64,000 bases of DNA. Origin: Candidatus Gottesmanbacteria bacterium (GTDB lineage: Bacteria; Patescibacteriota; Microgenomatia; UBA10105). The stretch is from NCBI GenBank assembly GCA_023245415.1, contig JAHFKJ010000001.1:32902-96901 (forward strand), in the 5' to 3' direction. A model generated the notes under the pieces. It had not been told where the DNA came from and did no database searches. It saw nothing but the letters and a program-made list of their open reading frames with translations. The translations under genes were made by a program, and so were the position numbers. Shown here in pieces: positions 11,393 to 48,233 of the stretch; position 1 is the first letter of the stretch, and every line of letters starts with the position of its first letter.

Positions 11393-11773
11393 ATGCATGT
11401 TAGTAATAATAAATTATTAGCTTCAGATAACAGAGGATTAATATATTTTATAACAGCATTGAATTTTTCTATGAAGAATGCTTTATTTATTCTTTCAAAG
11501 AAAGGTGCATTAAGAGCAAATCATTACCATCAAAAAGATACACACGTTACTTATTTAATCACTGGAAAGTTCGAATACTTTGAGAAAAAAGTTCAAAGTA
11601 ACAGGTTTGGTACTGTGTCTCGTATTATACATCCTGGTGAAATGGTAGAAACTTTACCCAACACGATACACGCCATGAAGTTTATGGAGGATTCGAGTAT
11701 GCTGGTATTAACAACCGAAAAAAGAGATCAAAAGAGCTACGAAGGAGACACTGTGAGAATTCAACTAATTTAA
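11393..11773 (+). CDS. Small cupin-fold protein, WxcM/FdtA-like (candidate NDP-sugar 3,4-ketoisomerase)
   Basis: 'DNRGLIYFITA', 'RANHYHQKDTHVTYLITG' and a C-terminal acidic tail. This is the only + gene between two - strand blocks, and the start is uncertain. Confidence 0.35.
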   Translation: MHVSNNKLLASDNRGLIYFITALNFSMKNALFILSKKGALRANHYHQKDTHVTYLITGKFEYFEKKVQSNRFGTVSRIIHPGEMVETLPNTIHAMKFMEDSSMLVLTTEKRDQKSYEGDTVRIQLI

Positions 11774-14195: not shown

Positions 14196-15139
14196 TTAAC
14201 CTGGCGCTTGTCGGAGTGGGTAAGTGGGGGAAAAACTTTTTGACTACTGTCGATAAGGTTTCAGATTGTAGGATTAAATATGTTTGCGCAAAAACGCAAA
14301 ATACACTGCAAAATTTATCGGATTCTTTTTCAAAGACAATTTTATATGAGGAATTATTCGAAAAAAAAGATTTACACGGTGTAATTATCGCGTCGCCTGC
14401 AGTAACTCATTTTAGAATGGCATATGACTTTATATCGCATGGGATTCCTGTACTTGTAGAAAAACCATTTACTACAAATCTTATTGAAGCAATTAAACTG
14501 GAAAATCACGCAACTAAACTGCAAGTTCCCTTAATGGTAGGACATGAATTTGTGTATAATCCCGCTTTTCAAGTCTTTAAACGAATATTATCTGAAATTG
14601 GATCTGTGAAATATATATATACGGAAGCAGGAAATTATGGTCCCTTTAGACCAGATATCTCCTGTTTATGGGATTGGGGTCCTCACGATGTCGCTATGTT
14701 AATTGATCTATTCCAATTATTACCTCAAACTGTTCAAGCTTGGATTACCGGTGAAGATATAGTTATCGCCCGACTTGTTTTTAATAAAACCGTAGATGCT
14801 TTTATCAACATCAACCGATTGATGCATACTAAAATTAGAACTTTCAATGCCTTGAGCCGTAAAATTAGCATTAGATACGATGAATTTGCGAAACAAAAAC
14901 TTACGTTTTATAGCTATCAACCAGTAATGAATAATTCCCAAATTAAACCGATGATTTCTTACCCTGACTATGATTTAACACCAGCGTTGCAAAAAGAAGT
15001 CGAAACCTTTGTTCAAATTATTCAAAACCGTAAGCATCCGAATCTTACAAACGGTTCTCACGCAGTGTTAGTAATCAAAATTCTCGAGGCCTTAGAGAAT
15101 TCATCAAACAACTCAGGTAAAGCTATAGAAATTCATTAA
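14192..15139 (+). CDS. Gfo/Idh/MocA-family NAD(P)-dependent sugar oxidoreductase (WbpB/WlbA-like)
   Basis: N-terminal Rossmann 'LALVGVGKWGKNF', 'GIPVLVEKPFTTNLIEA' and 'WDWGPHDVAML'. ATGA overlap with the upstream SDR gene. Confidence 0.65.
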   Translation: MINLALVGVGKWGKNFLTTVDKVSDCRIKYVCAKTQNTLQNLSDSFSKTILYEELFEKKDLHGVIIASPAVTHFRMAYDFISHGIPVLVEKPFTTNLIEAIKLENHATKLQVPLMVGHEFVYNPAFQVFKRILSEIGSVKYIYTEAGNYGPFRPDISCLWDWGPHDVAMLIDLFQLLPQTVQAWITGEDIVIARLVFNKTVDAFININRLMHTKIRTFNALSRKISIRYDEFAKQKLTFYSYQPVMNNSQIKPMISYPDYDLTPALQKEVETFVQIIQNRKHPNLTNGSHAVLVIKILEALENSSNNSGKAIEIH

Positions 15140-16946
15140 ATTCTAATACGTCTATATACGGACCAAATCTATTTACATGAAGCAGTTCGTAAACATTTGC
15201 AGATCCATGAATTAAATTTGTTAAAGGTTCTAACGAAGTCGTATGACGAGGAGTGATATGTTTAATTAATCGCCAGTGTGGAGGAGCATGGGTTACTAAT
15301 CGCTTTTCGGAAGTCCAAAATAATTGAATGATATATTTAATTTTCTGATTTTGAGCATACGCAAAAGTTTTATCAGGATCATCTCCTTGCTTGGTTATTT
15401 CGAGATAAACAACATTTCTTACAGTTTCCGGGTAGTCTTTCGGGGTTAAGACTTTAGCAAGTTGACCCCAAGCACTAGGTTTAAACACCTGCATAACTTT
15501 CATGGCTTCTCTATCGGGGACAAATGGAGAAAAACGAATAGATGTTAATGCAATCTGTAAGTTTGGATCAATATGTCGATTCAGCCAAGTCTGCATTTCA
15601 ATAAATGTAGGCGTATTGTTGTAACGTGATAACCATAAAAGAGATGGAAATATAAGTAATAATATGATTAAGCCAGTAGAGATAGTTAAAACATATTTAT
15701 TCTTAACGCTAACAAGAATATGATTCAAAACAAATGCTGCCGGAATTGATAAGAGGGGAATTATCGGAAGTAAATATCTGAGTGACTGATAAAATGTAAT
15801 CGCCATAATTAGAAAATAAATAGTTGAATAACTCATTATTGGTAAGAGTAATTTTGGCCAATGTTTTACCATGAAAATAGAAATTAAAAGTAATATAAAC
15901 AACATTGGTTCTGTAAGAATAAATTCTTTTGTATAAAACCCTAACCCGCTCAAAAGACCTTGGTTAATATTAGCGGTAAGTATATTTTGAAACTCTGATA
16001 GTTGATATGTATAAGTCATCAGCATTTTATATAAGCTTAACGAGACTAAAGGTATCCCGATAAGTACAGTGAGAGTAAGTAATGATTGGTTGTAAGGTAA
16101 AATTTTTCTTTTAGATTGCAAAAAAAGCAGCAAGAGTAGTAATAATCCATAAATGGCAGAAAAATGAAATCCAATAGCCAATACGAACGAAAGGGCAGAA
16201 AAAAATATAAATTTAATTTGTTGTTGAACTTTATCCAAACTTTTATAGCACCAGTAGATTCCCAACAAGTAAAAAAACTGTGAAGGCATCCACGGTTTCC
16301 CAATATGAGACAGTTGCACATGAGTTGTTGAAAATGCCACTATGAACGTAGCCCAAAAAGCAACGTTGGGTCGTTTGGGAAGTATTAATCTTGTTAACTT
16401 ATAGACAATTAGGAGTGAAGCTGTCCCAAATAAAGCTGAAATAAGTCTTGGAATAAATAATAAGTAGCCTTCGTGAGTTAATATAAAAAGTTCAAATTGA
16501 GAAATGTTGGATACGTGGTGAGTTAACCACAGGAACAGATAAGTAGCACCGAAGAATGGAATTAAAACATAAGAACCTAGTGGAGGATATTGAGAAGAAG
16601 TTATAAGTGTTTTTTGTGATAGCATTTCAAATGCCGCAAGGTAATTAGGAACTTCATCTGGAACGGTATAAAGTGCAGGACTACCAAAAGTTGGATTTAT
16701 AATTCTAATTGTAAACGCTAAAATAATAATAAATATTAGATTAATCATTGATGAATTCATAAATGTAAGGGGTAGTATAATTACACTAATCGATGGGAGC
16801 AAATAATGTGTTAAAAATAAAAAGCCAAATACCATACGGTAAACAGCAAATATTCTCTGATGATGTTGAAGCAGTTGTAAGAGTTTTAAATTCAGATTAT
16901 CTGACACAAGGACCTTGTATTGAAAAATTTGAATATGCAATCGCAC
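15123..16946 (-). CDS. Large polytopic membrane protein with a C-terminal soluble domain, GT-C-like. GTG start at 16946; an alternative ATG start sits near 16760.
   Basis: 607 aa, more than 10 predicted TM segments. First loop carries the 'YTVPDEVPNYLAAF' acidic motif resembling ArnT/PMT family. The long form overlaps the divergent aminotransferase start by about 150 nt, so the downstream start (MNSSMINL) is more plausible. Confidence 0.4.
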   Translation of the reverse strand: MRLHIQIFQYKVLVSDNLNLKLLQLLQHHQRIFAVYRMVFGFLFLTHYLLPSISVIILPLTFMNSSMINLIFIIILAFTIRIINPTFGSPALYTVPDEVPNYLAAFEMLSQKTLITSSQYPPLGSYVLIPFFGATYLFLWLTHHVSNISQFELFILTHEGYLLFIPRLISALFGTASLLIVYKLTRLILPKRPNVAFWATFIVAFSTTHVQLSHIGKPWMPSQFFYLLGIYWCYKSLDKVQQQIKFIFFSALSFVLAIGFHFSAIYGLLLLLLLFLQSKRKILPYNQSLLTLTVLIGIPLVSLSLYKMLMTYTYQLSEFQNILTANINQGLLSGLGFYTKEFILTEPMLFILLLISIFMVKHWPKLLLPIMSYSTIYFLIMAITFYQSLRYLLPIIPLLSIPAAFVLNHILVSVKNKYVLTISTGLIILLLIFPSLLWLSRYNNTPTFIEMQTWLNRHIDPNLQIALTSIRFSPFVPDREAMKVMQVFKPSAWGQLAKVLTPKDYPETVRNVVYLEITKQGDDPDKTFAYAQNQKIKYIIQLFWTSEKRLVTHAPPHWRLIKHITPRHTTSLEPLTNLIHGSANVYELLHVNRFGPYIDVLEFNEFL

Positions 16947-17986
16947 AATATTGTCAAGTCAAATACGCTGTAGCTTTTTCATCCGGTACCGCAGCTCTTC
17001 ATGGTGCATGTTTTGCTGCAGGAGTCGGAAATGGAGATGAAGTCATTACATCACCGTTAACTTTTGCAGCTTCAGCAAACTGTGTATTGTATTGCGGAGG
17101 AAAACCCGTATTTGCTGATATAAAATCCGATATTCCCTTGATAGATCCAAAACAAATATTTTTAAAAATTACCGATCGGACAAAAGCTGTTATACCTGTT
17201 GACTATTCTGGTATGCCAGCAGATTACCATGAAATAAATATTCTTGTTAGAAAACATAAATTAATAGTTATTGCGGATGCGGCGCATTCTTTCGGGGCAA
17301 CTTATAAGGATAAGAAAGTTGGCAGCTTAGCTGATATGACAGTGTTTTCTTTTCATCCAGTGAAACTTATTACTACAGGTGAAGGTGGAATGGTTGTAAC
17401 TAATAATCAAAAATTTTATGAGCGATTATTACTTTTTCGAAATCATGGGATTACAAAAGACCCGCGATTATTAAAAAGAAAAAGTGAGGGCCCATGGTAT
17501 TATGAAATGCAAGAGTTGGGTTTTAATTACCGACTAACCGATATACAGGCTGCGTTGGGTTTGATGCAACTTAAAAAAATTAATCGGTTTTTGGTTCGAA
17601 GGACTGAGATTGCTTCCGTATACACAAATTTTTTAAAAAATGAGATAAATATTCGTTCGCTGAGTGTTTCAAATGATCGCACATCCGCCTGGCATTTATA
17701 TCCGATTCAGCTGCAAGGAAAACTTCGAAATCTTAGAAAAGATATTGTAAATTTACTCCATAAGAGGGGGGTGATGGTACAAATTCACTACATTCCTGTA
17801 CATTTACATCCTTTTTATCACGAGCAGTTTGGGTTTAAAAAGGGAGATTTTCCCAACGCAGAAGCATTTTACGAAGGCGAAATTTCATTACCAATTTTTC
17901 CTAAACTAAAAACTAGAGAGCAATTTTGGGTTTTAAAAACACTCAAAAACGTCCTTACGTCTTTTTCTTCACTTAGTAAACATTGA
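16793..17986 (+). CDS. pseC: DegT/DnrJ/EryC1-family PLP-dependent sugar aminotransferase, PseC-like
   Basis: N-terminal 'IPYGKQQIFSDDVEAVVRVLNSDYLTQGP' is characteristic of PseC-type 4-aminotransferases. 'DAAHSFGATYKDKKVGSLADMTVFSFHPVKLITTGEGG' retains the PLP-binding lysine. Confidence 0.65.
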   Translation: MGANNVLKIKSQIPYGKQQIFSDDVEAVVRVLNSDYLTQGPCIEKFEYAIAQYCQVKYAVAFSSGTAALHGACFAAGVGNGDEVITSPLTFAASANCVLYCGGKPVFADIKSDIPLIDPKQIFLKITDRTKAVIPVDYSGMPADYHEINILVRKHKLIVIADAAHSFGATYKDKKVGSLADMTVFSFHPVKLITTGEGGMVVTNNQKFYERLLLFRNHGITKDPRLLKRKSEGPWYYEMQELGFNYRLTDIQAALGLMQLKKINRFLVRRTEIASVYTNFLKNEINIRSLSVSNDRTSAWHLYPIQLQGKLRNLRKDIVNLLHKRGVMVQIHYIPVHLHPFYHEQFGFKKGDFPNAEAFYEGEISLPIFPKLKTREQFWVLKTLKNVLTSFSSLSKH

Positions 17987-18012
17987 TTTTATCACTGTGG
18001 GAATATCAAATT

Positions 18013-18798
18013 TTAGCGGACATCAATTCCTTTTAGGCGCATATATTCTTTTGCATGTCGGGTGGATTGTTCAGTAAAGTGAAAAATGTTTGCTGCGGCT
18101 ACAGCCGATGCATGACCGTTCACAATTCCGTCAAATAAATGTTGCCATTCACCTACACCGCCGGCGGCAATTACTGGTATATCAACATTATCAGCAATAT
18201 TTCTAATTAAATTCAAATCATATCCGGAAAGTGTGCCGTCTTTATCCATTGATTGTAAAAGTATTTCTCCGGCTCCTCTGTTGGCCACTTCTTTTGCCCA
18301 ATAAATCGGATCCAAACCTGTTGCAACTTGGCCGTAACTTGTGATGACTTCATATTTATCATTTATTTTCTTAACATCAATTGACACAACGATACACTGT
18401 CTACCGAATATTTTAGCAGCCTCAGTTATAAATTCAGGTTTTTTAACAGCTTGTGAGTTGATCGAAATCTTATCGGCGCCGGCATGTAGATATTTTCTAA
18501 TATCAGCAATCGTATTGATACCACCACCAACAGTCAGCGGTACGAAACATCTAGTAGAAATATATTCTGTGTATTCAATCAATTTGGAGAAATTTTCTAA
18601 ATTAATATCCTGTCGACCTCGTATATACTTCATTTCTGGGGTGATGTCTAAAAAAACTATTTCGTCTACTTCCCATGCATTGAAGTATTCAATTGCAATT
18701 TTTGGGTTTCCTACAGGACGAAATGTTTTAAATTCAATACTCTTAACAAGCATACCTTCGCGCAACAACAGAATTGGGATCAGACGCTTTTTTAACAT
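18013..18798 (-). CDS. HisF-like cyclase/ammonia-channel subunit (WbuZ/AglY-like) of an acetamidino-sugar amidotransferase complex
   Basis: 'DEIVFLDI', 'AGADKISINS', 'DGTLSGYDLNLI' and 'IPVIAAGGVG' (TIM-barrel HisF signature). Lies in a sugar-modification context rather than a histidine operon. Confidence 0.7.
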   Translation of the reverse strand: MLKKRLIPILLLREGMLVKSIEFKTFRPVGNPKIAIEYFNAWEVDEIVFLDITPEMKYIRGRQDINLENFSKLIEYTEYISTRCFVPLTVGGGINTIADIRKYLHAGADKISINSQAVKKPEFITEAAKIFGRQCIVVSIDVKKINDKYEVITSYGQVATGLDPIYWAKEVANRGAGEILLQSMDKDGTLSGYDLNLIRNIADNVDIPVIAAGGVGEWQHLFDGIVNGHASAVAAANIFHFTEQSTRHAKEYMRLKGIDVR

Positions 18799-18799
18799 A

Positions 18800-20029
18800 T
18801 TACATGAATTGATATTCTTTTGGTTCTGGAAGAGGAGGGTTAGGCTGTAAAATATAGTAAGAATCAGGATTTAAGGGCAATCTAGAGACCTCGACGCCTG
18901 GATCATCAAGATGATTAGTAATAGAGTCAATCAGCTTCCAGTCACCAGATGATATTTTTTTCCATGCCTGTCGATCGCGCATTTTCTCAACTGCTTCAAA
19001 CAAATCTTTCTTGACTAGACCTGTCCATTTCAAGTATATATCCAGGTCATATGGTTCCTGGTGGTCATATTTTTCAACCATTGCAATTCCTTGCTCCCGG
19101 CTCATTCTACCGAAGCGAATATCAATACTGGCGTGATCCGTTGCTCGACCGTATCCAAATTTAAGATAGCGGAGATAGTCGTTTAGTCCGTTTGAAACAT
19201 GATCTTCGACATTTTCATATAAATTAAACGACCGATGCGGCGGTCCAGATTCAAAGCCGTATTTTTTTATCATCAGTTCCGTTTGTATTTTATGATTCCA
19301 GGGTATGAAGTTCCCTAAATAAATACCGCGAACATCGACACGATCAATTTCTTGATCGGTAGGATACATGGCCCAAAATAAATCCTTAGGTGTAATATCA
19401 TTTTCTTCTGAGAGCATATCCTGCCAATCATAACCGCGAAGTCCGTGTTCTACACGAAACTTTTTTGTCATTTCCACCATATCAAAATGTGAAAACATAC
19501 CTCCCAAGTCCATAAAACCTTGCTCACCCCAAATTATAAGCGGTATATTGTATTTTACGGCAATTTGCACAGGATAAGTGTAGATTCCACAGTGACTGTG
19601 CCAAAACATATCCCCCATTCTTCTTATAGTATAGATGGATAATTTTTTGATAGCAGCTGGATTGGGAGTGAAACGGAGATGGTCTAACTCAAATCGTTTG
19701 ACTAAGTTAGTCAAGTTTCTTAAACCGCGTTTGGTATTCATCTCGTGGTTAAATGTCACGAGCAACGGATTCATCCCGTAAATAACTTTAATGAGATAGG
19801 TTTGATAATGGCTATCTTTGCCGCCGGAAACAGGAATAATACAATCATAGTTTTTACCATTAGTGCTGCGATACTTGTCTAGAATAGTTCGAAGTTTATT
19901 CTCGCGCTCCTTCCAGTCGATGCTTTCTTTTTCTTCATGTACCCGACATGCACTACATACACCTTGTTCATCAAAGGTGAGCGGAATGGCATAATTTTCC
20001 GGACAGACGCAGCGTTGACAGTAGCGCAT
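18800..20029 (-). CDS. N-acetyl sugar amidotransferase (WbuX/WbpG/PseA/AglZ-like PP-loop ATP pyrophosphatase)
   Basis: N-terminal Cys-rich ribbon 'CQRCVCPENY...CSACRVHEE' and PP-loop 'IIPVSGGKDSHYQ'. Adjacent to the HisH-like and HisF-like genes. Confidence 0.7.
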   Translation of the reverse strand: MRYCQRCVCPENYAIPLTFDEQGVCSACRVHEEKESIDWKERENKLRTILDKYRSTNGKNYDCIIPVSGGKDSHYQTYLIKVIYGMNPLLVTFNHEMNTKRGLRNLTNLVKRFELDHLRFTPNPAAIKKLSIYTIRRMGDMFWHSHCGIYTYPVQIAVKYNIPLIIWGEQGFMDLGGMFSHFDMVEMTKKFRVEHGLRGYDWQDMLSEENDITPKDLFWAMYPTDQEIDRVDVRGIYLGNFIPWNHKIQTELMIKKYGFESGPPHRSFNLYENVEDHVSNGLNDYLRYLKFGYGRATDHASIDIRFGRMSREQGIAMVEKYDHQEPYDLDIYLKWTGLVKKDLFEAVEKMRDRQAWKKISSGDWKLIDSITNHLDDPGVEVSRLPLNPDSYYILQPNPPLPEPKEYQFM

Positions 20030-20034
20030 AAAAT

Positions 20035-20643
20035 TTAAGACTCCATCATAACAAAGTTTTTCAAGAGTTGCAATCCGTTTTTCTGGCTTTTTTCCGGATG
20101 AAATTGGACTCCGTAAATATTATGAAATTTGACACTGGATACAAACGTTTCTCCATAATCACAAGTGGAAGTGACAATTGGTTTCTCTTTTGGATCTATC
20201 ACATAGCTGTGGGCAAAATAAAAGGTTGGATTCTCTGGCAAATCTTTAAACAGACTAGTTTTATCCTTTACCAAAACATTATTCCAACCAACGTGTGGTA
20301 ACTTCTCTCGAGTGTTAATTTTTCTGACAATTCCCTGAATCCAATTTAATCCTTCATATTTACCATCTTCAAAACCGGTTTGGGCCAATAGCTGCAGTCC
20401 TAAACATATACCTAAATATAGTTTACCCTTGATTAACACTTCATCACGCAAGCAGTGAATAAGCTGACTCTTACGTATGGCTTTCATTCCGTCACAAAAC
20501 GCACCCTGGCCGGGAAAAATTAACTTATCAGCTTGTTGAATATACTTGGGTTCGGTTGTAATTTGATGCGGAGCTTTAAGATAGGCTAAAGCGTTTGCTA
20601 CTGATTTGACATTACCGATTCCCGAGTCAATGATTGCGATCAT
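20035..20643 (-). CDS. HisH-like class I glutamine amidotransferase subunit (WbuY/AglX-like)
   Basis: 'GICLGLQLL' catalytic Cys region and 'VQFHPEKS' His/Glu region. Confidence 0.7.
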   Translation of the reverse strand: MIAIIDSGIGNVKSVANALAYLKAPHQITTEPKYIQQADKLIFPGQGAFCDGMKAIRKSQLIHCLRDEVLIKGKLYLGICLGLQLLAQTGFEDGKYEGLNWIQGIVRKINTREKLPHVGWNNVLVKDKTSLFKDLPENPTFYFAHSYVIDPKEKPIVTSTCDYGETFVSSVKFHNIYGVQFHPEKSQKNGLQLLKNFVMMES

Positions 20644-21154
20644 ATTTAATTTTTTTTAACGTGCGTACCAGTACCTCGGTGTATAACGGATACAACTGTG
20701 CATACACTTCGGCCTCGGTTTTAATTTCTATGTTTTCAATCATTTTATATTCTTCGAAAAGTATTTCACCAGCATCGATTTTCTCCACCATCCAGTGTGA
20801 AGCGACAGAGGCTTTAGGATTGCCGTCGGCGATAAGTCTTTTTATCGGATTGACGCCTTTATACCTGTAAAGACAAGGGTGAAGATTTATACATGGTAAA
20901 GTTTCTACGAACTGTCTAGATAAAATTTTACGTCCGTGACAACAAATGAAAAGATCTATGTTAGCTGCGATTTCTTTGGGAAACGCGGGGTCATCTAAGA
21001 TTGAGGGTGGAAATGTGCGTAATTGAAAGCTGTTTGCGATTTGCTTAATGCCCTCGTCAACATATATTACATTACGTATGTCATGTTTTGATGCTAAAAG
21101 TGTTAATAATGTAATAACACCGGCAGTTTGGCCGCCATAGAATGCAATCCTCAC
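20627..21154 (-). CDS. Formyltransferase-fold protein (Formyl_trans_N-like), candidate sugar N-formyltransferase
   Basis: 'INLHPCLYRYKGVNP' matches the HxSLLPxxxG catalytic motif of formyltransferases, with a downstream Asp in 'VEKIDAGEIL'. Only about 175 aa, so N-domain only. Confidence 0.5.
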   Translation of the reverse strand: MRIAFYGGQTAGVITLLTLLASKHDIRNVIYVDEGIKQIANSFQLRTFPPSILDDPAFPKEIAANIDLFICCHGRKILSRQFVETLPCINLHPCLYRYKGVNPIKRLIADGNPKASVASHWMVEKIDAGEILFEEYKMIENIEIKTEAEVYAQLYPLYTEVLVRTLKKIKYDRNH

Positions 21155-21174
21155 GAAGGTATTGTATCAAAAAA

Positions 21175-22227
21175 TCACGCAAGTATTTCTCGAGTAAGTG
21201 GCGTTCCTCGTTGGATATCAAGTGCAGCTTTTCTTCCTAAAACTTCATCCAAATATTTTGGGTGTAATCCATATCCGGGGCGGATACAACGGACATTTTC
21301 TTGAGTAAATCTTTCACCTTTCCTGACGTTTTTGACAATAAAAAGTGAGCGACGGAAGACAATATTTTCTGATTCACGTTTGTCTGGTTTATATGTCGGC
21401 TTGCCAATAGCTTTTTCGACTTGGCGAATTTCTTGAACCAGCCGTTTGAACTCTAAAGGCTCTAATGAAAACGTGCAATCTGAACCACCTTCTTTACGCG
21501 AAAGTGTCAAATGTTTCTCGATGATTTTCGCTCCTAGTGCCACCGCAGTTATGGATGCAGTTAGACCTAAACTATGATCGGACAATCCCGGAATTACTTT
21601 AAATTTTTTTTGCAGATCCGGGATTGTCGCAATATTCATTTGTTCCAAAGTTGCTGGATAGGAACTGATGCAGTGGAGTACGGCGACCCCTGCTGCACCG
21701 TTTCTTTTAAGGGTGTTTATAGCCGTGATTATTTCTTCTGGTGAGGCTAACCCACGTGAGATTAATACCGGTTTTTTTGTTTGGCCAATCCGCTTGAGTA
21801 AGTCTACATCAATATTTTCAAATGACGCAATCTTGTATAGAGGCGGAGTTAATTCTTCTAAAAAATCAACCGCGGTGATATCAAAAGGCGTGGAAAAAAT
21901 GATTAAGCCTTTTTTTCGAGCATAAGCAAAAAGTTGCGGATGCCATTCCCAAGGAGTGTATACAGATTTATATAAGTCATAAAGTGTTTGGCCGGCCCAG
22001 GCATTGGCTTTGCCAATACGAAACCATTTTTTATCCGAATCAATTGTCAAGGTATCGGGTGTATAAGTTTGTAATTTGACTGCATCGACGCCTGCTTCTT
22101 TTGCAGCATCAATCAATTGATAAGCCCGATTAAGATTTTGTTTATGATTTCCCGATAGCTCAGCAACAATAAAACACGGCTGTCCAGCGCCAACTTTCCG
22201 TTTGTCTATTGAAAAAATATTCTGCAT
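21175..22227 (-). CDS. pseI: N-acetylneuraminate-synthase-family nonulosonic acid synthase, PseI-like
   Basis: 'CFIVAELSGNHKQNLNRAYQLIDAAKEAGVDAVKLQTY' TIM-barrel signature and a C-terminal SAF domain 'RRSLFIVKNVRKGERFTQENVRCIRPG'. Confidence 0.7.
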   Translation of the reverse strand: MQNIFSIDKRKVGAGQPCFIVAELSGNHKQNLNRAYQLIDAAKEAGVDAVKLQTYTPDTLTIDSDKKWFRIGKANAWAGQTLYDLYKSVYTPWEWHPQLFAYARKKGLIIFSTPFDITAVDFLEELTPPLYKIASFENIDVDLLKRIGQTKKPVLISRGLASPEEIITAINTLKRNGAAGVAVLHCISSYPATLEQMNIATIPDLQKKFKVIPGLSDHSLGLTASITAVALGAKIIEKHLTLSRKEGGSDCTFSLEPLEFKRLVQEIRQVEKAIGKPTYKPDKRESENIVFRRSLFIVKNVRKGERFTQENVRCIRPGYGLHPKYLDEVLGRKAALDIQRGTPLTREILA

Positions 22228-22241
22228 AAGAATTCATTATA

Positions 22242-22970
22242 TCATTGACCAAAATGCTTTCGTGGTATATGATTATTAATTGCTGGGAGTTCCGGGTGAG
22301 AGTCCAACAAAGAAATGATTTGCTGACAATTTAATGAATCTGCATGGTAATTCTCGATGAGAATTTTTATGAGTTGGTAATCTTCCTGAGTGTCAACTGA
22401 AAGTTGATAGGCAGATTTATCAATCCTTTGTACGAATTGACTTATTTTAAATTCCTGCCGGTGAGTTCGATAAATATATGGTGTTACATGTTCACGTTCC
22501 ACAGTATCGTGGGCGTTTTTATAAGCCGTTTCAAGCGCCTTAAACGTAAAAATTTCGAAATCAAACCCGCGGGGAAAAGTGCGTTTGATGGTATTTGATA
22601 GATAGTCAGAATTCTCTTCAAGATATTGTTCTAGGCCTTGGGAGATTAAATCTCCATCAATTAGAGGACAATCTGAAGTGATTCGAATAACTGTGTCAGC
22701 TTTAAATTCCTTTGCAGTTTCGTAATAGCGACTTAAAACATCATCTAATTTTCCTCGAAAGACTGTATACTGTTGTTTTTGACAATAGATATATAATTTA
22801 TCATCCGATGCGTTTGTGGATGTAGCAATCACAACTTGATCAATGTGTTTTGTACATTTAATTCGATTAACCACATACCACAATAACGCTTCACCATTTA
22901 TGGGTAATAAGACTTTACCTGGAAGTCTTGTTGAACTCATTCTGGCTTGAATGATTAAAACTATTTGCAT
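22242..22970 (-). CDS. pseF: Acylneuraminate cytidylyltransferase family (PseF/NeuA-like CMP-nonulosonate synthetase)
   Basis: 'IVLIIQARMSSTRLPGKVLLPINGEALL' and 'VVIATSTNASDD'. Confidence 0.7.
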   Translation of the reverse strand: MQIVLIIQARMSSTRLPGKVLLPINGEALLWYVVNRIKCTKHIDQVVIATSTNASDDKLYIYCQKQQYTVFRGKLDDVLSRYYETAKEFKADTVIRITSDCPLIDGDLISQGLEQYLEENSDYLSNTIKRTFPRGFDFEIFTFKALETAYKNAHDTVEREHVTPYIYRTHRQEFKISQFVQRIDKSAYQLSVDTQEDYQLIKILIENYHADSLNCQQIISLLDSHPELPAINNHIPRKHFGQ

Positions 22971-22976
22971 AAGATA

Positions 22977-24014
22977 CTATATCTTATAAAGTGCATCAAA
23001 AAACATTTTTTGTATCGGATGCGGACTCCGTCTATAGATTAAGCGCCAATTTTTCGGAAACTGATAATCAAATTCCTTAATATAAGAATTAACTGAAGTT
23101 CTGGATTTACGCCATTGTTTTAGATAAAAAAAACCATGAGTAAGTCGATCGATTAAACTCACAAAATTTTTAATTTGTTCTCTCGTCATCTCATGAAAGG
23201 AACTGATGTTTATCATTAAATTATAATATTTTTTAGGTAAGTATTCTAATTGATGCGGGAGTATGAAGCGTATTCGTGCAGAGATAAATTCTTTCTTAAT
23301 TTGGTTAAAAGACTTAAACGAATGGAAGAAAAATATCCTATCGTTTGGAAAAACTGCCGATATATATTTTTGAGATACATGAAGTGCTGGTGGTATATCG
23401 ATAATTGTATAAGTGCATTGTGGTAGTACCTTCAGGAATACAGTTGCTAATCTACCGTATCCGGCCCCGATTTCTGCAATATTCATTTTACTCTGGCCGG
23501 CTATTTTATTGGTTATACTATAAAATTCATGAATTGAATTACATAAATCCTGAGATAATAATTGATTTTTGTATTCAACTATAAATGGATTGCCGATTTT
23601 TGGTTCGGAGGCAATGTTGAAAATTTCTTTAATGTCTGTTGCTTTCAAATAGTCGGCATAAGACGCTACAAATATTCTGTATATAAAAGCTGAGATAGCA
23701 TTGAAATGTTTAATATTTCCCGCTTTCGTATTATTGTAATTTCTAAATCTACTCAAATAAAGTGGTTTCAGATTTCCCTGAAAAAGTTGAGATAATACTA
23801 TATTTAGTTGCTGTCTGATTATCCCTAAAGTTCCCCAGTTAAAATATTTCATATTAACAGTGCGTTTGAAATTCTTAAACCCATAATGTATCAATTGGTC
23901 AGTATGTTTACTATTTAATTCTTCCCAAAATTGAGAAGGAAAATAAATTGGCTTACTAGAACGAAGCTCTTTATGCATGCTGGATTGTTGCAGTTTATCC
24001 GAGTTGCTAGTCAT
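22977..24014 (-). CDS. SAM-dependent methyltransferase, putative sugar O-methyltransferase
   Basis: 'EIGAGYGRLATVFLKVLPQCTYTIIDIPP' SAM motif I. N-terminal 'FWEELN...GFKNFKRTVNMKYFNW' block. Confidence 0.45.
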   Translation of the reverse strand: MTSNSDKLQQSSMHKELRSSKPIYFPSQFWEELNSKHTDQLIHYGFKNFKRTVNMKYFNWGTLGIIRQQLNIVLSQLFQGNLKPLYLSRFRNYNNTKAGNIKHFNAISAFIYRIFVASYADYLKATDIKEIFNIASEPKIGNPFIVEYKNQLLSQDLCNSIHEFYSITNKIAGQSKMNIAEIGAGYGRLATVFLKVLPQCTYTIIDIPPALHVSQKYISAVFPNDRIFFFHSFKSFNQIKKEFISARIRFILPHQLEYLPKKYYNLMINISSFHEMTREQIKNFVSLIDRLTHGFFYLKQWRKSRTSVNSYIKEFDYQFPKNWRLIYRRSPHPIQKMFFDALYKI

Positions 24015-24023
24015 ATATGCGGA

Positions 24024-25643
24024 TTATTTTTTTTGCGCGACGATTAGTTGTATTGGAGATCCTTTGCATAAATAAAATAGATATGAAATAGGTACGAGGA
24101 TAATTCCTAACATCCCTATAATAATAGGCAATATTAACTTATATTTATGAGTGTATTTTAGAGCAAAAATATTTAGTTTTGGTGAAATGCGATATAATAT
24201 GCTTTGTGTCAATCCGATGGGGATATATTCAATTGCATAAATAGTTCTTTTTTTAATGATTCTGAATCCTACATCCTCAATTATTTGTGTTAGTCCATTT
24301 GGGGTAAAGTGAAAGAGATGTCTAGGCGGGTCTAGATGAAACCAGCTCGAACCAAATAAAATTCTTTCCCATGAGTTGTAGTTCGGGCATTCTATTATCA
24401 GAATTCCACCTTTTTTTAAGTATATAGATACCTTTTTAAGTGTTTGTAAAGGATTTTTTAGATGTTCAAAACTTTCCCAAAAAGTAACTAGATTGTAAGA
24501 CATAGGCTTTTCATTCATTTTTTCTACTCCTACGAGCTTAACATTTGAACTTTTAGAATCAGAGAATGGGGTTTCTATACATTGATAGAAGTACTTATTA
24601 GAATCTAATTGACCTCCTATTTTTCCGTCACCGCAGCCAATGTCTAAAATTTTTCCCGCAGGTAAAAAGCTTTTAATTATTTTTGGGCGTCGAACTTGCA
24701 AAAGACTGTATATAAAGGTTTTTAAAAAAATAAAGTATATTTTAGGGTAAAAAGTATGCAAACCATTAGGCTTTGGGTGTGTAAATCCAATATTGCAGGG
24801 AGTACAATAATATATTGAAAATATATTATTGCTGACAGCATCGCGAACATTATACTCTAAACGAGTTATGGATCGTCTACACAAAGGGCATTGTTGTACG
24901 GAAACTTTACTAAAAGGTCCGGAAGGCTTTTTGACAAATTTTGATATTACATATTGAGTGAGCGTCTTGAAAGTCCCTAATGCATAAATCGTACTATTTT
25001 TTAAGTTCGCCGTATGCATTTTCGGATGATAATCACAGGATACTTGTATTTCAGCTATTTTAAATTTATAAAATACTGCCTGTACGATAATTTCGAAGCT
25101 AAAAAGATAATCATCGGAATTTTGGTAAAAAGGAATTGATGTAAGTAATTTTCGTGTGTATAGTCTAAATCCTGAGTGGAATTCTGAAAGCTCTAACCCG
25201 AGTAGTAAATTATCTACATACGAAAGGCCACGATTTGCAATAAACTTATGGATAGGCATTTTTCGATCAAGAGCATCTTTCGGGTGAATAAACCTTGATC
25301 CGAGAGCCAAATCATAACCCCGGGAGATTTTTTTGAGGAACAAAGGTAAATTTTGCGGATCGTATTGATTGTCCGGATGGAATTCAATTATTATATCAGC
25401 ACTAGCTTCTAGAGCACGTGAAAGGCTAACTTTGAGGTTTCCACCGTATCCCAAGTTTAGAGAATTACGAAATACTGTGATTGGAAGTTCTTTCGCAACT
25501 TTATAAGTATTGTCCGTAGACGCATCATCTACGAGTATAATTTGGTCTATAAGTTTTTTAGGAAGTCTATTGTAAGAATCAACTAAAGTTTTAGCTGCAT
25601 TGTGTGCAGGCATAACTACAATGATTTTAGGTTTTTTGGTCAT
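24024..25643 (-). CDS. Fusion protein: N-terminal GT2 (DPM1-like), central Cys4 ribbon, C-terminal class I SAM methyltransferase, and a C-terminal TM anchor
   Basis: N-terminal 'KIIVVMPAHNAAKTLVDSYNRLPKKLIDQIILVDDASTDNT'. Central 'CPLCRRS...CTPCNIG'. C-terminal 'ILDIGCGDGKIGGQL' and the hydrophobic tail 'LILPIIIGMLGIILVPISYLFYLC'. Confidence 0.6.
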   Translation of the reverse strand: MTKKPKIIVVMPAHNAAKTLVDSYNRLPKKLIDQIILVDDASTDNTYKVAKELPITVFRNSLNLGYGGNLKVSLSRALEASADIIIEFHPDNQYDPQNLPLFLKKISRGYDLALGSRFIHPKDALDRKMPIHKFIANRGLSYVDNLLLGLELSEFHSGFRLYTRKLLTSIPFYQNSDDYLFSFEIIVQAVFYKFKIAEIQVSCDYHPKMHTANLKNSTIYALGTFKTLTQYVISKFVKKPSGPFSKVSVQQCPLCRRSITRLEYNVRDAVSNNIFSIYYCTPCNIGFTHPKPNGLHTFYPKIYFIFLKTFIYSLLQVRRPKIIKSFLPAGKILDIGCGDGKIGGQLDSNKYFYQCIETPFSDSKSSNVKLVGVEKMNEKPMSYNLVTFWESFEHLKNPLQTLKKVSIYLKKGGILIIECPNYNSWERILFGSSWFHLDPPRHLFHFTPNGLTQIIEDVGFRIIKKRTIYAIEYIPIGLTQSILYRISPKLNIFALKYTHKYKLILPIIIGMLGIILVPISYLFYLCKGSPIQLIVAQKK

Positions 25644-26884
25644 GGAACAATGCTTACGGAAGGGACAGGTATAATAAATTTACCTCCTTGAGTTATATAA
25701 TTTTTTTCTTTATCCATTATCTCTTTCGCAAAGTTCCAGGCTAAAAGTAAAATATAGTCAGGTTTTCGCTTGGATATTTCGACTTCAGGATAAATTCTGA
25801 TATGAGATCCGGGGGTATATAATCCTTGTTTATATGGAGTTGAATCAACTGCAAAATCAATAAGCGTATTATTAATACTGCAGTAATTAAGTAGAATATT
25901 GCCTTTTGCTGCAGCACCGTAGGCAGCGATAGTTTTGCCGTTATTTTTCAGTTTTTGTAATGTCATCTTCAGTTCTCTGCGTAATCTTTTTATACGTTTT
26001 GCGAATAAATTTAATACTGACAAATTGCCCAGGCCAAATTTCTCTTCGGCGGCAATCATGTCCTTGATTTTGTCGTTTATTGTATTATTATTCTGGTTTT
26101 CCTTTTTACCGATATAGACCCGTAATGATCCGCCATCTATAGACGTCCGTTCGATGTCTATTAAATGAAGATTTACTTGTGAAAGCAGGTTTAATAAAGG
26201 TTTTACTGAAAAGTAGGAAAGATGCTCATGATAAATCGTGTCGAATTGATTTTTTTCAATTAAATCCATTAGATACGGAAATTCACATATAAAAGCTCCG
26301 TTATCAGAAAGAAGTATTTTGATTGAATTAAATAAGTCATGTAAATCCTGTATATGGGCAACCACATTTGTTGCGGTGATAATTTTAGCGGTACCTTTTG
26401 CGGAGCGTATTTTTTTCGCCAGTTTTTGAGAAATATAATCATTGATTGTTTCTATACCTTTTAACTGGGCTATTTTTGCTAAATTGGTCGCCGGGTCAAT
26501 TCCTAAAGTTTTAATACCATAACCTCTAAAATAGGAGAGCAAACTGCCATCGTTGCTTCCTATATCAATCACTAAAGATTCAGTTGAAATGTGAAAACGA
26601 TTACGGATAGTAAAAGCTATATCTGCAAAGTTGCTCATTCTGGTTTTCGAACTTGAAGGTATATACACATAGTTTTTAAACATTGCTTCAGGGTTTACTG
26701 TCTCTGCCAGTTGGACAAGACCGCAGTCCATACAATAGGCGGTGTTTAATGGGTATTTATTTTCTTTCTTTTTTAGATCTTCCAATTTCAAGAATCCATT
26801 AGGGAGAGGAATCGTTCCTAGATTTAAAAATGTAAACAGTCTTTTTCCTTTACAGATTCTACAGTGAACTAATTTTTTAGTCAT
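25640..26884 (-). CDS. Zn-ribbon plus SAM methyltransferase of the NDP-sugar C-methyltransferase-like family; paralog of 11770..13011
   Basis: 'CRICKGKRL...CMDCGLVQL', 'LVIDIGSNDGSLL', 'FDTIYHEHLSYFS', 'GGSLRVY' and 'KTIAAYGAAAKGNILLNY'. Colinear with 11770..13011 over the full length. Confidence 0.6.
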   Translation of the reverse strand: MTKKLVHCRICKGKRLFTFLNLGTIPLPNGFLKLEDLKKKENKYPLNTAYCMDCGLVQLAETVNPEAMFKNYVYIPSSSKTRMSNFADIAFTIRNRFHISTESLVIDIGSNDGSLLSYFRGYGIKTLGIDPATNLAKIAQLKGIETINDYISQKLAKKIRSAKGTAKIITATNVVAHIQDLHDLFNSIKILLSDNGAFICEFPYLMDLIEKNQFDTIYHEHLSYFSVKPLLNLLSQVNLHLIDIERTSIDGGSLRVYIGKKENQNNNTINDKIKDMIAAEEKFGLGNLSVLNLFAKRIKRLRRELKMTLQKLKNNGKTIAAYGAAAKGNILLNYCSINNTLIDFAVDSTPYKQGLYTPGSHIRIYPEVEISKRKPDYILLLAWNFAKEIMDKEKNYITQGGKFIIPVPSVSIVP

Positions 26885-26916
26885 ACAAATAAGAAAACAA
26901 TTTTATATTGAGTAGT

Positions 26917-28476
26917 TTACTTCGACAAGCTGTATAAATATAGACTTTTAGTTCTTGCGCCATCTGATAAGTTGCTTTCGGAAAATTCTTTAATTAAGGA
27001 ATAGTTTTTTTTAATTTCATTTAATATCTCAAGTCGCTGTAATTCGGTTCTCCCGAAATAATGTGTATAAGAATCATTATAGATAATCATTGCTATTCTT
27101 TTATTGTGTATCATATCTTTAAATTCTTCTAAAGATGTCAAATGGTACTTTTGAGCAGATTGCGTGTCTAATATTGATAATGATCCGGCACCTTCATTCA
27201 TACGAATTGGTACGCTTCTATTTATTTCAGCGACAACTGGTAGGTAAAAAGTGATGATTAAGTCATCTATGTTTGTATTATTTTCTACAAATGCTGATAT
27301 CTCGCGAACGTAGTCATGAGGGTTTTTTTGTATAGTACTTAAGGACGTTTTAAGAAATTTGTAATGGGGAAAAGCAACAAAATTGGAAAATAGTATAAAA
27401 ATTAGTAGTGCGTAAAGAAATTTCCTGGTACTAACTCCAGAAATTTTTTGGCTGGTTATTATAACATAGTTGCTTGCCATTATTGATAATAAAGGTACAA
27501 CTGGATATAAATATGAGGAGTCCATGGGGTGATGAATTAAAGCGGTTAAAAGATATATAAAAATTATCATCCGGCAAAACAGAGAAAAGAGATAGTTTTT
27601 TTTAGAAGTTACTGTTTTTGTGAACAAAATTTCACTCAATATTATTATTAGAAATATTCCATAGTCTCTGATCGTTAATATAATAAATTCAATTATATTA
27701 GTTAAATTATACCTAGGGATATCTGAAACATATATAAGAATTTTTTTTGAGAAAAAAGGCCAAATAAGAGCATAAAGAGTTAGCTGAACACTTTTAAATA
27801 AAAAGGGCAGATATACACAAGTCGCTGTAAGAAGTCCAATTCCAGTCACCTTAATCAAATAATTCCTATTCTGCCTATGTCTGTATAAAGTATAAAACCA
27901 GCATAAAAGTAAGATTGGAATAGTTTGCGATCGTACAGCGGTATTAATTACAGCGAACATAATTGCAGCTGAGTTCCAATGAAGGATATGCCTTTTGGAT
28001 TTCAAAGACTTTGAGATGCAAAAAATGGTCAATATCAAAAATAATGACATTATTTGACTTGAATACGGGATATTTGAGTTGTAAAGATAGGTAATACTGC
28101 CAAACGTCAAAAATAAACCAGTTAATAAAACTTGTTTTCCGGATCCTAATGTTCTGCTGATTATTAAACACAGAATCAAGACTATCAAAGCTATTAGAAA
28201 TCCGATTACACGTTGAGAAAATATTGTTGGAAGTGTAAAAAGTGATGAGAATCCAATCAGATAATCAGTGAGAAGACTATTCCATCCGTTATAATCTATA
28301 AAAGGAATATGACCTGAATAAGCCAATTTTGCATTATAAAGTGCGATACCTTCATCGGTTGTTATATATCCGTATACTATAAAAATTAACCGTAAAATTA
28401 TATTTATACTCAATATTACAGAAAATAAAAGCATCCCACGGTTGCGAAGTGACTTAGTAAAATTAATAAATTTCAT
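26917..28476 (-). CDS. Large polytopic membrane protein, GT-C-like (ArnT/PMT-like acidic loop motif)
   Basis: 519 aa, many TM segments. First loop 'GYITTDEGIALYNAKLAYSG'. C-terminal soluble domain. Confidence 0.4.
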   Translation of the reverse strand: MKFINFTKSLRNRGMLLFSVILSINIILRLIFIVYGYITTDEGIALYNAKLAYSGHIPFIDYNGWNSLLTDYLIGFSSLFTLPTIFSQRVIGFLIALIVLILCLIISRTLGSGKQVLLTGLFLTFGSITYLYNSNIPYSSQIMSLFLILTIFCISKSLKSKRHILHWNSAAIMFAVINTAVRSQTIPILLLCWFYTLYRHRQNRNYLIKVTGIGLLTATCVYLPFLFKSVQLTLYALIWPFFSKKILIYVSDIPRYNLTNIIEFIILTIRDYGIFLIIILSEILFTKTVTSKKNYLFSLFCRMIIFIYLLTALIHHPMDSSYLYPVVPLLSIMASNYVIITSQKISGVSTRKFLYALLIFILFSNFVAFPHYKFLKTSLSTIQKNPHDYVREISAFVENNTNIDDLIITFYLPVVAEINRSVPIRMNEGAGSLSILDTQSAQKYHLTSLEEFKDMIHNKRIAMIIYNDSYTHYFGRTELQRLEILNEIKKNYSLIKEFSESNLSDGARTKSLYLYSLSK

Positions 28477-28540
28477 AAAATACTGAGCATATTCTACTTA
28501 AAATATTGTGGATAGGCCAGTATTATGATATCTTTGTCGC

Positions 28541-29527
28541 ATGTTTGAATGGTCAAAACAAGTAATACTTCTTACTGGTGGGACAGGTTCTTTTGGTCAA
28601 GCTTTTACTAAGTATTTATTAAAAAAACAACCACCTAAATCACTACGGATTTATAGTCGTGATGAGTATAAACAATATTTGATGCAGCAAAAATTTAACC
28701 ATCGTGCATTACGCTATTTTTTAGGAGATGTACGTGATATCGATCGGTTACGCAGAGCAATGTCTGGGGTATCTTTAGTAATTCACGCAGCGGCTATGAA
28801 ACAAATTGTAGCTTCCGAATATAATCCCACTGAAGCAGTAAAAACTAATATATTCGGGACTATGAACGTTTTAAACGTGGCTCTTGATTATGATATTGAA
28901 AGAGTATTTGGACTAATCACCGACAAAGCAGTCAGTCCGATAAATCTATACGGTGCTACAAAGTTGTGTATGGAGAAACTGCTTATTCAAGGTAATGCTT
29001 ATCGAGGAAAATGTAAAACAAAATTAAGCTGCATACGGTATGGGAATGTTGCAGGCAGCCGTGGAAGTATTATTCCTCTATTTTCGAAACAGCAAAGAAA
29101 AGGATTTATAACGCTTACCCATCCCGAGATGACAAGATTCTGGTTGACATTGGAAGACGCTGTCAGTTACGTAATTAGATCGATTGAGATTATGAAGGGC
29201 GGAGAGGTGTTTATACCCAAGATGCCCAGTTTTAAAATAATTGATCTCATTAAAGCAATAAATCCAAAACTAAGGCATAAATTGATAGGGGTAAGACCAG
29301 GAGAAAAAATACACGAAGACTTAATTAATATTCATGAGTCTAAAAACATTAGAGAACTTCCCAAACATTTTGTACTTTTGCCAGAGTTTGATTTTTGGGA
29401 TGATCCCGGAAAAGAATATAAAGTTGGGAAAAATGTATCCGCGACATTTTCATATAGTAGTAATAATAATTCTCATTTTTTGTCACATACGCAACTTGCT
29501 CAGTTGTTAAAAACAATTGAGTTATGA
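28541..29527 (+). CDS. pseB: UDP-N-acetylglucosamine 4,6-dehydratase (inverting), PseB/FlaA1-like short CapD-family SDR
   Basis: 'ILLTGGTGSFGQAF', 'GDVRDIDRL', 'HAAAMKQIVASEYNPTEAVKTNIFGTMNV', 'ITDKAVSPINLYGATKLCMEKL' and 'IRYGNVAGSRGSIIPLF'. Confidence 0.75.
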   Translation: MFEWSKQVILLTGGTGSFGQAFTKYLLKKQPPKSLRIYSRDEYKQYLMQQKFNHRALRYFLGDVRDIDRLRRAMSGVSLVIHAAAMKQIVASEYNPTEAVKTNIFGTMNVLNVALDYDIERVFGLITDKAVSPINLYGATKLCMEKLLIQGNAYRGKCKTKLSCIRYGNVAGSRGSIIPLFSKQQRKGFITLTHPEMTRFWLTLEDAVSYVIRSIEIMKGGEVFIPKMPSFKIIDLIKAINPKLRHKLIGVRPGEKIHEDLINIHESKNIRELPKHFVLLPEFDFWDDPGKEYKVGKNVSATFSYSSNNNSHFLSHTQLAQLLKTIEL

Positions 29528-46598: not shown

Positions 46599-46641
46599 GT
46601 TTACATTGTAGCAAATATGAAATCTGGCTATAATTACCCCC

Positions 46642-48232: not shown

Positions 48233-48233
48233 T

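Follow-up and report, generated by a model that had tools for sequence, protein, structure and literature searches.

Which sugar is made by a gene cluster in which a HisH/HisF/WbuX amidotransferase trio and a 175-aa formyltransferase are packed against a nonulosonate synthase and a cytidylyltransferase? The question is raised by six genes in a 64,000-nucleotide stretch of a Candidatus Gottesmanbacteria contig (JAHFKJ010000001.1, positions 32,902 to 96,901), hereafter the window, whose first letter is position 1. The answer that we favour, with a probability of about 0.62, is that these genes form the part of a pseudaminic acid (Pse) pathway in which the sugar is tailored and activated, and that the likeliest product of this pathway is cytidine monophosphate (CMP)-Pse5Am7Fo, that is, a Pse carrying an acetamidino (Am) and a formyl (Fo) group. 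What was demonstrated here is which genes are present, the families to which they belong, their active-site residues, the fold and the conservation of synteny. Counts for related loci are drawn from 19 loci carrying relatives of the 175-aa formyltransferase, and individual related loci are given by their L number.

The identity of the sugar core can be read from three enzymes, PseB, PseC and PseI, all of which score above the cut-offs of their equivalog models. PseI reaches 472.2 bits with its own model (TIGR03586, cut-off 340.25) but only 303.4 bits with the NeuB_NnaB model TIGR03569, below the cut-off of 399.65. Taken together, the three equivalogs predict that the nonulosonate made by the cluster is pseudaminic acid, and not legionaminic or neuraminic acid. 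A first-pass annotation of this DNA had proposed an acid of pseudaminic or legionaminic type; the pseudaminic half of that proposal stands, while the legionaminic half does not. The canonical CMP-Pse pathway of Helicobacter and Campylobacter, also found on a Klebsiella plasmid (L025), runs through PseB, PseC, PseH, PseG, PseI and PseF. The window has PseB, PseC and PseI in common with it but lacks recognizable PseH and PseG, and PseF is replaced by another protein of the CTP_transf_3 family. By NCBIfam and phmmer, PseH-like GNATs and PseF-like proteins are present only in some of the other related loci.

This CTP_transf_3 protein had been described as PseF/NeuA-like. The superfamily holds (PF02348, 121 bits against a threshold of 22.6), but the PseF equivalog does not (TIGR03584, 26.3 bits against 205.7). 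Its relatives lie elsewhere: it matches the 'cytidylyltransferase' of PDB entry 6OEW with E=6e-46 and scores 97 bits with an unnamed gene located between pseC and pseG in a pse operon of Bacillus mycoides. That gene is the only cytidylyltransferase-like gene of an operon that has no pseF, and from its position we take it to be the one called Pcp. We therefore presume, from sequence similarity, that the window protein is a CMP-Pse synthetase of a non-PseF type. In B. subtilis, spsF, a putative cytidylyltransferase gene, is needed to transfer legionaminic acid to the spore surface (PMC7439481). In one related locus (L016:584-2626) a CTP_transf_3 domain is fused to an aminotransferase resembling glutamate-1-semialdehyde aminomutase (680 aa), and the same two families are encoded by neighbouring genes in L004.

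The HisH/HisF/WbuX amidotransferase trio

The three genes of the trio are single-copy in the window and follow each other in the order hisH-wbuX-hisF, with gaps of 5 and 1 nt. WbuX scores 371 bits with TIGR03573 (cut-off 203.2), residues 1-347 of the protein covering positions 1-343 of the 344 in the model, and carries an SGGKDS PP-loop at residues 68-73 as well as CxxC motifs at residues 4 and 25. HisH scores 225.2 bits with TIGR01855 (cut-off 105.4), a model that does not separate histidine-pathway from glycan-pathway copies, and its catalytic triad is complete: Cys80 (in GICLGLQ), His182 and Glu184 (H182-P-E184).

The HisF paralogue, on the other hand, falls below the cut-off of every model of its family: WbuZ (TIGR03572, 279.7 bits against 299.7), hisF (TIGR00735, 262.6 against 294.55) and AglZ/HisF2 (NF038364, 234.6 against 310). 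WbuZ is nevertheless its best-scoring model. The rationale for looking at single residues is that, as we take from established work on the T. maritima enzyme, Asp11 and Asp130 of HisF are catalytic, whereas other positions form the ammonia gate and the contact with HisH. Our own working criterion for a glycan-type HisF was loss of Asp11 with retention of the gate (R5, E46, K99, E167) and of D98. Alignment to HisF structures places a leucine at the position of Asp11; the equivalent of D130 (D141) is kept, as are R5, E46, K99, E167 and the HisH-contact residue D98. This is not a peculiarity of one gene. Among the 119 informative nearest relatives, found among 5.8 billion proteins, position 11 is L in 92, I in 20, V in 3, F in 2, P in 1 and D in a single case, so that 118/119 are non-Asp, and all seven syntenic copies from related loci (7/7) have also lost Asp11 while keeping the gate. 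The loss of Asp11 and the intact gate describe a paralogue that is dead as a cyclase and retains its channel, and we propose from these residues that it acts as a cyclase-site-disabled subunit that channels ammonia and activates the glutaminase. Public annotation nonetheless names its relatives 'imidazole glycerol phosphate synthase cyclase subunit'. Such HisF-like relatives carry Patescibacteria names, which, with the nearest match of the formyltransferase (Curtissbacteria, 57%), points to a probable Patescibacteria genome. The suggestion of the first-pass annotation that HisH and HisF had been co-opted, and that this HisF is not a genuine imidazole glycerol phosphate (IGP) synthase, is borne out by these observations and by the gene content: no hisA, hisB, hisD, hisG or any other histidine gene was found among the open reading frames (ORFs) of at least 110 aa in the 64 kb, and every ORF of the window that could be assigned is a glycan gene. 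The HisF paralogue also has an insertion of ~11 residues after strand 2 (residues ~56-67, KYIRGRQDINL...), which is common to L002, L009, L011 and L017 and is not found in L008, L010 and L021.

The linkage of the trio to nonulosonate genes, already pointed out before this analysis, recurs beyond the window. WbuX lies inside the block of PseI and the formyltransferase in 9/19 loci, accompanied by HisH and HisF in 8 of them, and its module directly abuts the formyltransferase in the window and in L002, L004, L011 and L021. The amidotransferase forms an accessory module attached to a core of Pse genes. Furthermore, the best annotated plasmid matches of WbuX adjoin genes of neuA/neuB/neuC type. 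A plasmid of a cultured Rhodobacteraceae encodes, in the same order, an acylneuraminate cytidylyltransferase, an N-acetyl sugar amidotransferase, HisH and HisF, and this HisF also has Leu at D11 while retaining the gate residues and D98. In L010:4322-8182, two WbuX paralogues lie either side of one HisH/HisF pair, which may serve both synthetase subunits.

The same three families are adjacent in WbuX/WbuY/WbuZ (FucNAm of E. coli O145), WbpG/HisH2/HisF2 (P. aeruginosa O5) and AglX/Y/Z (Methanococcus maripaludis), a likeness assessed through NCBIfam models only and qualified by the HisF paralogue scoring below the WbuZ and AglZ cut-offs. Contrary to these systems, in which the trio is partnered with a hexosamine or hexuronate pathway, the partner here is a Pse pathway. 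Other amidotransferases, PseA of Campylobacter jejuni and PtmG/LegA, serve acetamidino forms of Pse and legionaminic acid (Leg). In the window a dedicated glutaminase and a channel subunit are encoded beside the synthetase, and the Campylobacter loci are not known to have a dedicated HisH/HisF pair.

A single-domain formyltransferase beside PseI

The 175-aa protein was expected to have a formyltransferase fold, and our results agree with this. It scores 47.1 bits with PF00551 (gathering threshold 26.1), all 33 family members compared have the Asn90-His92-Asp127 triad unchanged, and its AlphaFold2 (AF2) model (pLDDT 96) matches the catalytic domains of Fmt and ArnA in Foldseek with query-normalized TM-scores (TMq) of 0.88-0.90. 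The C-terminal domain of Fmt, ArnA and most sugar N-formyltransferases is absent (175 aa against about 315 for Fmt). The model ends in a long helix (147-174), and the Foldseek targets, of 244-314 aa, give target-normalized scores (TMt) of only about 0.5. We rejected an identity as Met-tRNA formyltransferase or PurN: there is no C-terminal tRNA-binding domain, both equivalog models score poorly (fmt 57 against 201.5, PurN 32 against 150) and the Pse context is fixed.

The ~170-aa family comprises 70 matches. When one genome of each species was scanned, it turned up only in bacteria of the candidate phyla radiation (CPR) and in DPANN archaea. The CPR hosts are Curtissbacteria (the nearest, 57% identity), Magasanikbacteria, Saccharibacteria, Staskawiczbacteria, Collierbacteria and Paceibacterota; the DPANN hosts are Woesearchaeota, Aenigmatarchaeota and Micrarchaeia. 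Two loci are labelled otherwise, L011 as Gammaproteobacteria and L015 as Methanosarcinales, possibly through mis-binning. For L011 (CAYHKY010000020.1), which is 74-77% identical to the window with the same gene order, the metagenome-assembled genome is labelled 'uncultured Gammaproteobacteria' while NCBI labels its formyltransferase (P0019) Patescibacteria, a conflict that probably reflects an error of binning or labelling.

PseI is adjacent to the formyltransferase gene or one small gene away in 15/19 loci, PseC is found in 17/19 and a CTP_transf_3 protein in 13/19. Directly downstream, L015, L016 and L019 encode a 5-formyl-tetrahydrofolate cyclo-ligase. A FolD gene is also found downstream in L015 and L017, as identified by NCBIfam, and in L020, where the protein resembles the L015 and L017 copies in BLAST. 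The adjacency of PseI and the downstream folate genes provide good contextual evidence for folate-dependent formyl transfer within the Pse pathway. Such modules for the supply of a formyl donor, seen in sugar clusters of DPANN and some CPR, occupy L015:9995-11832, L016:3692-5488, L019:10001-11070, L017:10001-11343 and L020:10001-11774.

As phmmer detected no PseH-like GNAT in the window, the simplest reading is that the formyltransferase substitutes for PseH and gives an N7-formyl group. We propose, from sequence and context, that it is a PseH substitute and a functional analogue of PseJ of Anoxybacillus kamchatkensis (PDB 6CI2, 6CI4). PseJ, too, is short, with chains of 192-217 aa, and has essentially one domain; it takes the place of PseH in a Pse cluster and formylates in the pathway to Pse5Ac7Fo (PMC11040635). 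The window protein nevertheless belongs to a separate lineage, a remote match to PseJ and found here only in CPR and DPANN genomes.

Gene layout and the surrounding glycan genes

The six genes are confirmed by the ORF listing, with exactly the limits first given for them, and an independent gene call on identical DNA of a public contig (Logan SRR14366783) agrees (Table 1). The formyltransferase gene opens with a GTG start. From 3' to 5', the junctions measure +1, +5, -17, +20 and +14 nt, so the described gaps of 1-20 nt hold. Two overlapping pairs had also been claimed; only one exists, between the hisH and formyltransferase genes (-17 nt), and a 4-nt overlap lies further upstream, between the genes for the glycosyltransferase (GT) 2-methyltransferase and the C-methyltransferase. 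At its 5' side the cluster continues on the same strand with four more genes, so that the six occupy the 3' end of a block of ten. Judged from spacing only, the genes of the block would be co-transcribed; a promoter and terminator scan of 16500-29800 gave site counts equal to those of shuffled sequence and is uninformative on the operon. The GC content of the six genes is 0.355-0.406, that of the four upstream block genes 0.30-0.34 and that of the whole window 0.339, a contrast within the block that could reflect conservation or a separate origin.

Table 1. Genes of the block and flanking Pse genes, in window coordinates
Feature	Position	Strand	Evidence and remarks
HisF paralogue (WbuZ/HisF2 type), 261 aa	18013..18798	-	PF00977, 197 bits
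WbuX-family N-acetyl sugar amidotransferase, PP-loop ATP pyrophosphatase, 409 aa	18800..20029	-	TIGR03573
HisH-type class I glutaminase, 202 aa	20035..20643	-	TIGR01855
Single-domain N-formyltransferase, 175 aa	20627..21154	-	PF00551
PseI, pseudaminic acid synthase, 350 aa	21175..22227	-	TIGR03586
CTP_transf_3 cytidylyltransferase, 242 aa	22242..22970	-	PF02348
NanM-like putative sugar O-methyltransferase	22977..24014	-	TIGR04371, 136 bits vs 44; 6-nt gap
GT2 glycosyltransferase-methyltransferase fusion	24024..25643	-	PF00535 + PF13489
TylCIII-type sugar C-methyltransferase	25640..26884	-	PF08421, PF13489, PF08484
Polytopic membrane protein, 519 aa, first gene of block	26917..28476	-	ORF
PseC aminotransferase	16793..17986	+	TIGR03588, 490.6 bits vs 423.5; convergent with HisF paralogue, 26-nt spacer
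PseB, inverting UDP-GlcNAc 4,6-dehydratase	28541..29527	+	TIGR03589, 442 bits vs 407.75; divergent from block
GT-B-fold protein, 633 aa	29524..31425	+	Weak C-terminal match to BFO_1060 family; AF2/Foldseek

The 519-aa membrane protein at the head of the block has no family match, but L002 has a homologue of it at the equivalent position. A homologue of the 633-aa protein follows PseB in L002 too. This protein matches, in its C-terminal part, the family of the Tannerella nonulosonate transferases BFO_1060/Tanf_01245 with only 40 bits, far below the family cut-off of 200, and has an invariant H494-P495. Its AF2 model (pLDDT 80) has a generic GT-B fold, for which the top Foldseek matches are UDP-GlcNAc 2-epimerases, including NeuC (TMq about 0.4, root-mean-square deviation about 7 Å). 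It could be the Pse transferase or the absent UDP-sugar hydrolase.

The rest of the 64 kb encodes GT1, GT2, GT4 and GT-C-like proteins, methyltransferases, DegT aminotransferases, RfbH, RmlD and a flippase. At 46080-51483 lies a set resembling WbpB/WbpD/WbpE, composed of a Gfo/Idh/MocA protein similar to UDP-GlcNAc 3-dehydrogenases, a left-handed β-helix (LbH) acetyltransferase and DegT aminotransferases, with a GNAT and a LegC-like aminotransferase alongside. From its families, this region may encode a pathway to a 2,3-diamino sugar or to a second diamino sugar; no uronate dehydrogenase was seen with the set. Six large polytopic membrane proteins with weak PMT_2/GT22/DUF2142/Agl23-like matches (15123-16946, 26917-28476, 37356-38933, 52798-54369, 56267-57871 and 59903-61270) make for an unusually high density of GT-C-type candidates. 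The first of them, as a 607-aa ORF with a GTG start, would share about 150 nt with the beginning of the divergent pseC; its true start probably lies downstream, and the public call is of 545 aa. Two paralogous TylCIII-type C-methyltransferases (11770-13011, 413 aa; 25640-26884, 414 aa) suggest, by their family, that branched-chain sugars are made in the same glycan locus.

Proposed pathway and its alternatives

The route that we propose would start with PseB and PseC converting uridine diphosphate (UDP)-GlcNAc into UDP-4-amino-4,6-dideoxy-β-L-AltNAc. The 175-aa formyltransferase would then use N10-formyl-tetrahydrofolate to formylate the 4-amine in place of PseH, this nitrogen becoming N7 of Pse. 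After removal of UDP by a hydrolase to which no gene is assigned, PseI would condense the free sugar with phosphoenolpyruvate to give Pse5Ac7Fo, which the CTP_transf_3 enzyme would convert into its CMP-sugar. At this stage WbuX, with ATP, would activate the carbonyl of the N5-acetamido group, while HisH hydrolyses glutamine and the HisF paralogue channels the ammonia to WbuX, turning the acetamido into an acetamidino group and yielding CMP-Pse5Am7Fo. In Campylobacter, Am groups are reportedly also added to the CMP-sugar (PMC5378307). Finally, the sugar may be O-methylated by the NanM-like methyltransferase, and its transfer may fall to the 633-aa GT-B protein. From the genes and residues described above we infer which substrate each enzyme uses, in what order the steps occur, that the groups sit on N7 and N5 and that the trio works as one complex.

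Several observations weigh against this pathway. No PseG was found by NCBIfam models or by phmmer with Klebsiella and Bacillus reference proteins, either in the window or in the 19 loci, which leaves one obligatory step, the hydrolysis of the UDP-sugar, with no assigned enzyme. The short formyltransferase is accompanied by a PseH-like GNAT, with a single PseI, in L013 and L015, and L009:10001-10981 encodes a 326-aa formyltransferase that, over its C-terminal half, is similar to the GNAT (PseH) portion of a PseG-PseH fusion from Klebsiella, an apparent fusion of formyl- and acetyltransferase. This co-occurrence in L009, L013 and L015 means that the formyltransferase is not always a simple replacement of PseH and makes the position of the formyl group uncertain. 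A profile of the family recovers PseJ with 24.8 bits (E=1.6e-4) at about the 52nd rank, behind about 50 chains of Fmt, ArnA, WbtJ, VioF, WbkC and PurN (best 59.7 bits, Fmt), and PseJ is absent from the top 50 Foldseek matches. The WbpB/WbpD/WbpE-like set could supply another acetamido substrate to the trio. Lastly, no mention of Pse5Am7Fo was found in the literature searched.

Candidates to fill the PseG gap might be proteins that recur beside PseI in other loci, small GT2 proteins in L006, L010 and L012 or DUF218 proteins in L008, L013 and L017. Recurrent formyltransferase neighbours of ~275 aa were also considered as PseG substitutes and rejected, as NCBIfam identifies the L015 and L017 copies as FolD and that in L020 is their BLAST homologue; of the other neighbours of this size, that in L012 is a sulfotransferase and that in L004 has no match.

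Could the substrate of the trio be a different sugar? The first-pass annotation had itself raised a 2,3-diamino sugar as an alternative. The trio would then amidate a hexose-type acetamido sugar, either a 2,3-diacetamido sugar made by the WbpB/WbpD/WbpE-like genes or a sugar of FucNAc type, as WbpG, AglXYZ and WbuXYZ do, and its adjacency to PseI would be incidental. The candidate genes for this do exist, with the 3-dehydrogenase-like gene, the LbH acetyltransferase and several DegT aminotransferases at 46080-51483; WbuX-family enzymes are known from hexose contexts, and the name of the TIGR03573 subfamily is generic. But these genes are about 26 kb off and in other transcription units, the window yielded neither a UDP-GlcNAc 6-dehydrogenase nor a 2-epimerase that a route to ManNAc3NAcA would need, and the trio is tied to PseI and the formyltransferase: WbuX occupies their block in nearly half of the independent loci, its module is translationally coupled to the formyltransferase in five, and its closest annotated homologues adjoin neuA/neuB/neuC-type genes. 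We consider this explanation less likely than that of an amidated Pse, and improbable overall. Another explanation, that HisH and HisF are a genuine IGP synthase of histidine and purine metabolism located here by chance, finds its grounds in HisH passing the hisH equivalog, in the 262.6 bits of the HisF paralogue with the hisF model and in the name that public annotation gives to relatives. It is effectively refuted by the replacement of the catalytic Asp11, here and in nearly all informative relatives, by a hisF score lower than both its cut-off and the WbuZ score, by the lack of any further his gene in the 64 kb and by the location of the WbuX gene between those of HisH and HisF.

The chemistry at the two nitrogens is the other point at which explanations diverge. 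The formyltransferase may act on a different amine, be it N5 through a GlcN-level precursor, a route proposed for 5-N-formyl-legionaminic acid, or another amino sugar of the locus, with N7 acetylated by an unlinked PseH, so that Pse5Ac7Am, Pse5Am7Ac or a Pse5Fo-type sugar would result. The loci combining a formyltransferase with a PseH-like GNAT speak for this, as do the many further aminotransferases of the window and a formyltransferase predicted in a 5-N-formyl-Leg cluster of Halorubrum (PMC6137143). We nonetheless judge it unlikely: no PseH-like protein was detected in the window, PseB is a UDP-GlcNAc-specific equivalog, it is to PseI and not to other amino-sugar genes that the formyltransferase is bound in 15/19 loci, and PseJ, the one characterized formyltransferase of a Pse pathway, serves Pse5Ac7Fo, with the formyl at N7 (PMC11040635). 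Much less probable still is that the target of the PP-loop enzyme is the formamido group that its neighbour makes, giving an N-formimidoyl (formamidino) Pse. In five loci the formyltransferase does lie directly against WbuX or HisH, with translational coupling between the genes, and WbuX is present in about half of the formyltransferase loci; yet the other half do without WbuX, and many WbuX loci elsewhere have no formyltransferase. No formamidino sugar is known, and the WbuX family is not known to be characterized, genetically, for anything but the conversion of acetamido into acetamidino groups.

CMP-Pse5Am7Fo thus remains our preferred product, and none of its parts is without precedent: acetamidino sugars are made with HisH/HisF/WbuX trios, Am-Pse with PseA and Fo-Pse with PseJ. 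A comparable combination is the Pse5Am7Gra of Tannerella forsythia, which also bears Am on one nitrogen and a non-acetyl acyl group on the other, although that second group is glyceroyl, whereas here it would be formyl; Tannerella reportedly has no homologues of pseA and ptmG (PMC5378307). What is new is modest: a separate minimal lineage of formyltransferases, formyl and acetamidino tailoring in one Pse operon, and the systematic lack of PseG. A wider proposal, offered tentatively and with the odds against it, is that CPR and DPANN would share a streamlined Pse route without PseG, made of PseB, PseC and PseI together with a minimal ~170-aa formyltransferase that does not share its descent with PseJ and a cytidylyltransferase other than PseF. 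An enzyme not homologous to PseG, be it the 633-aa GT-B protein, a DUF218 protein or a small GT2, would release UDP, and where HisH/HisF/WbuX are present the outcome would be an undescribed Pse5Am7Fo on the surface of episymbionts.

Nothing here overturns current understanding, and the case draws attention to the unassigned hydrolysis of the UDP-sugar. The replacement of Asp11 by a hydrophobic residue offers a simple sequence rule to tell glycan-pathway HisF paralogues from the true histidine enzymes, which are now confused in public annotation. The compact 175-aa formyltransferase and the glutamine-dependent amidination module could serve the chemo-enzymatic synthesis of Pse derivatives. If the proposed product is correct, ultra-small symbiotic bacteria and archaea would bear a sialic-acid-like surface sugar on which a formyl group is combined with an acetamidino group of positive charge, and such a Pse5Am7Fo-type sugar could play a part in how these cells attach to hosts and evade phages.

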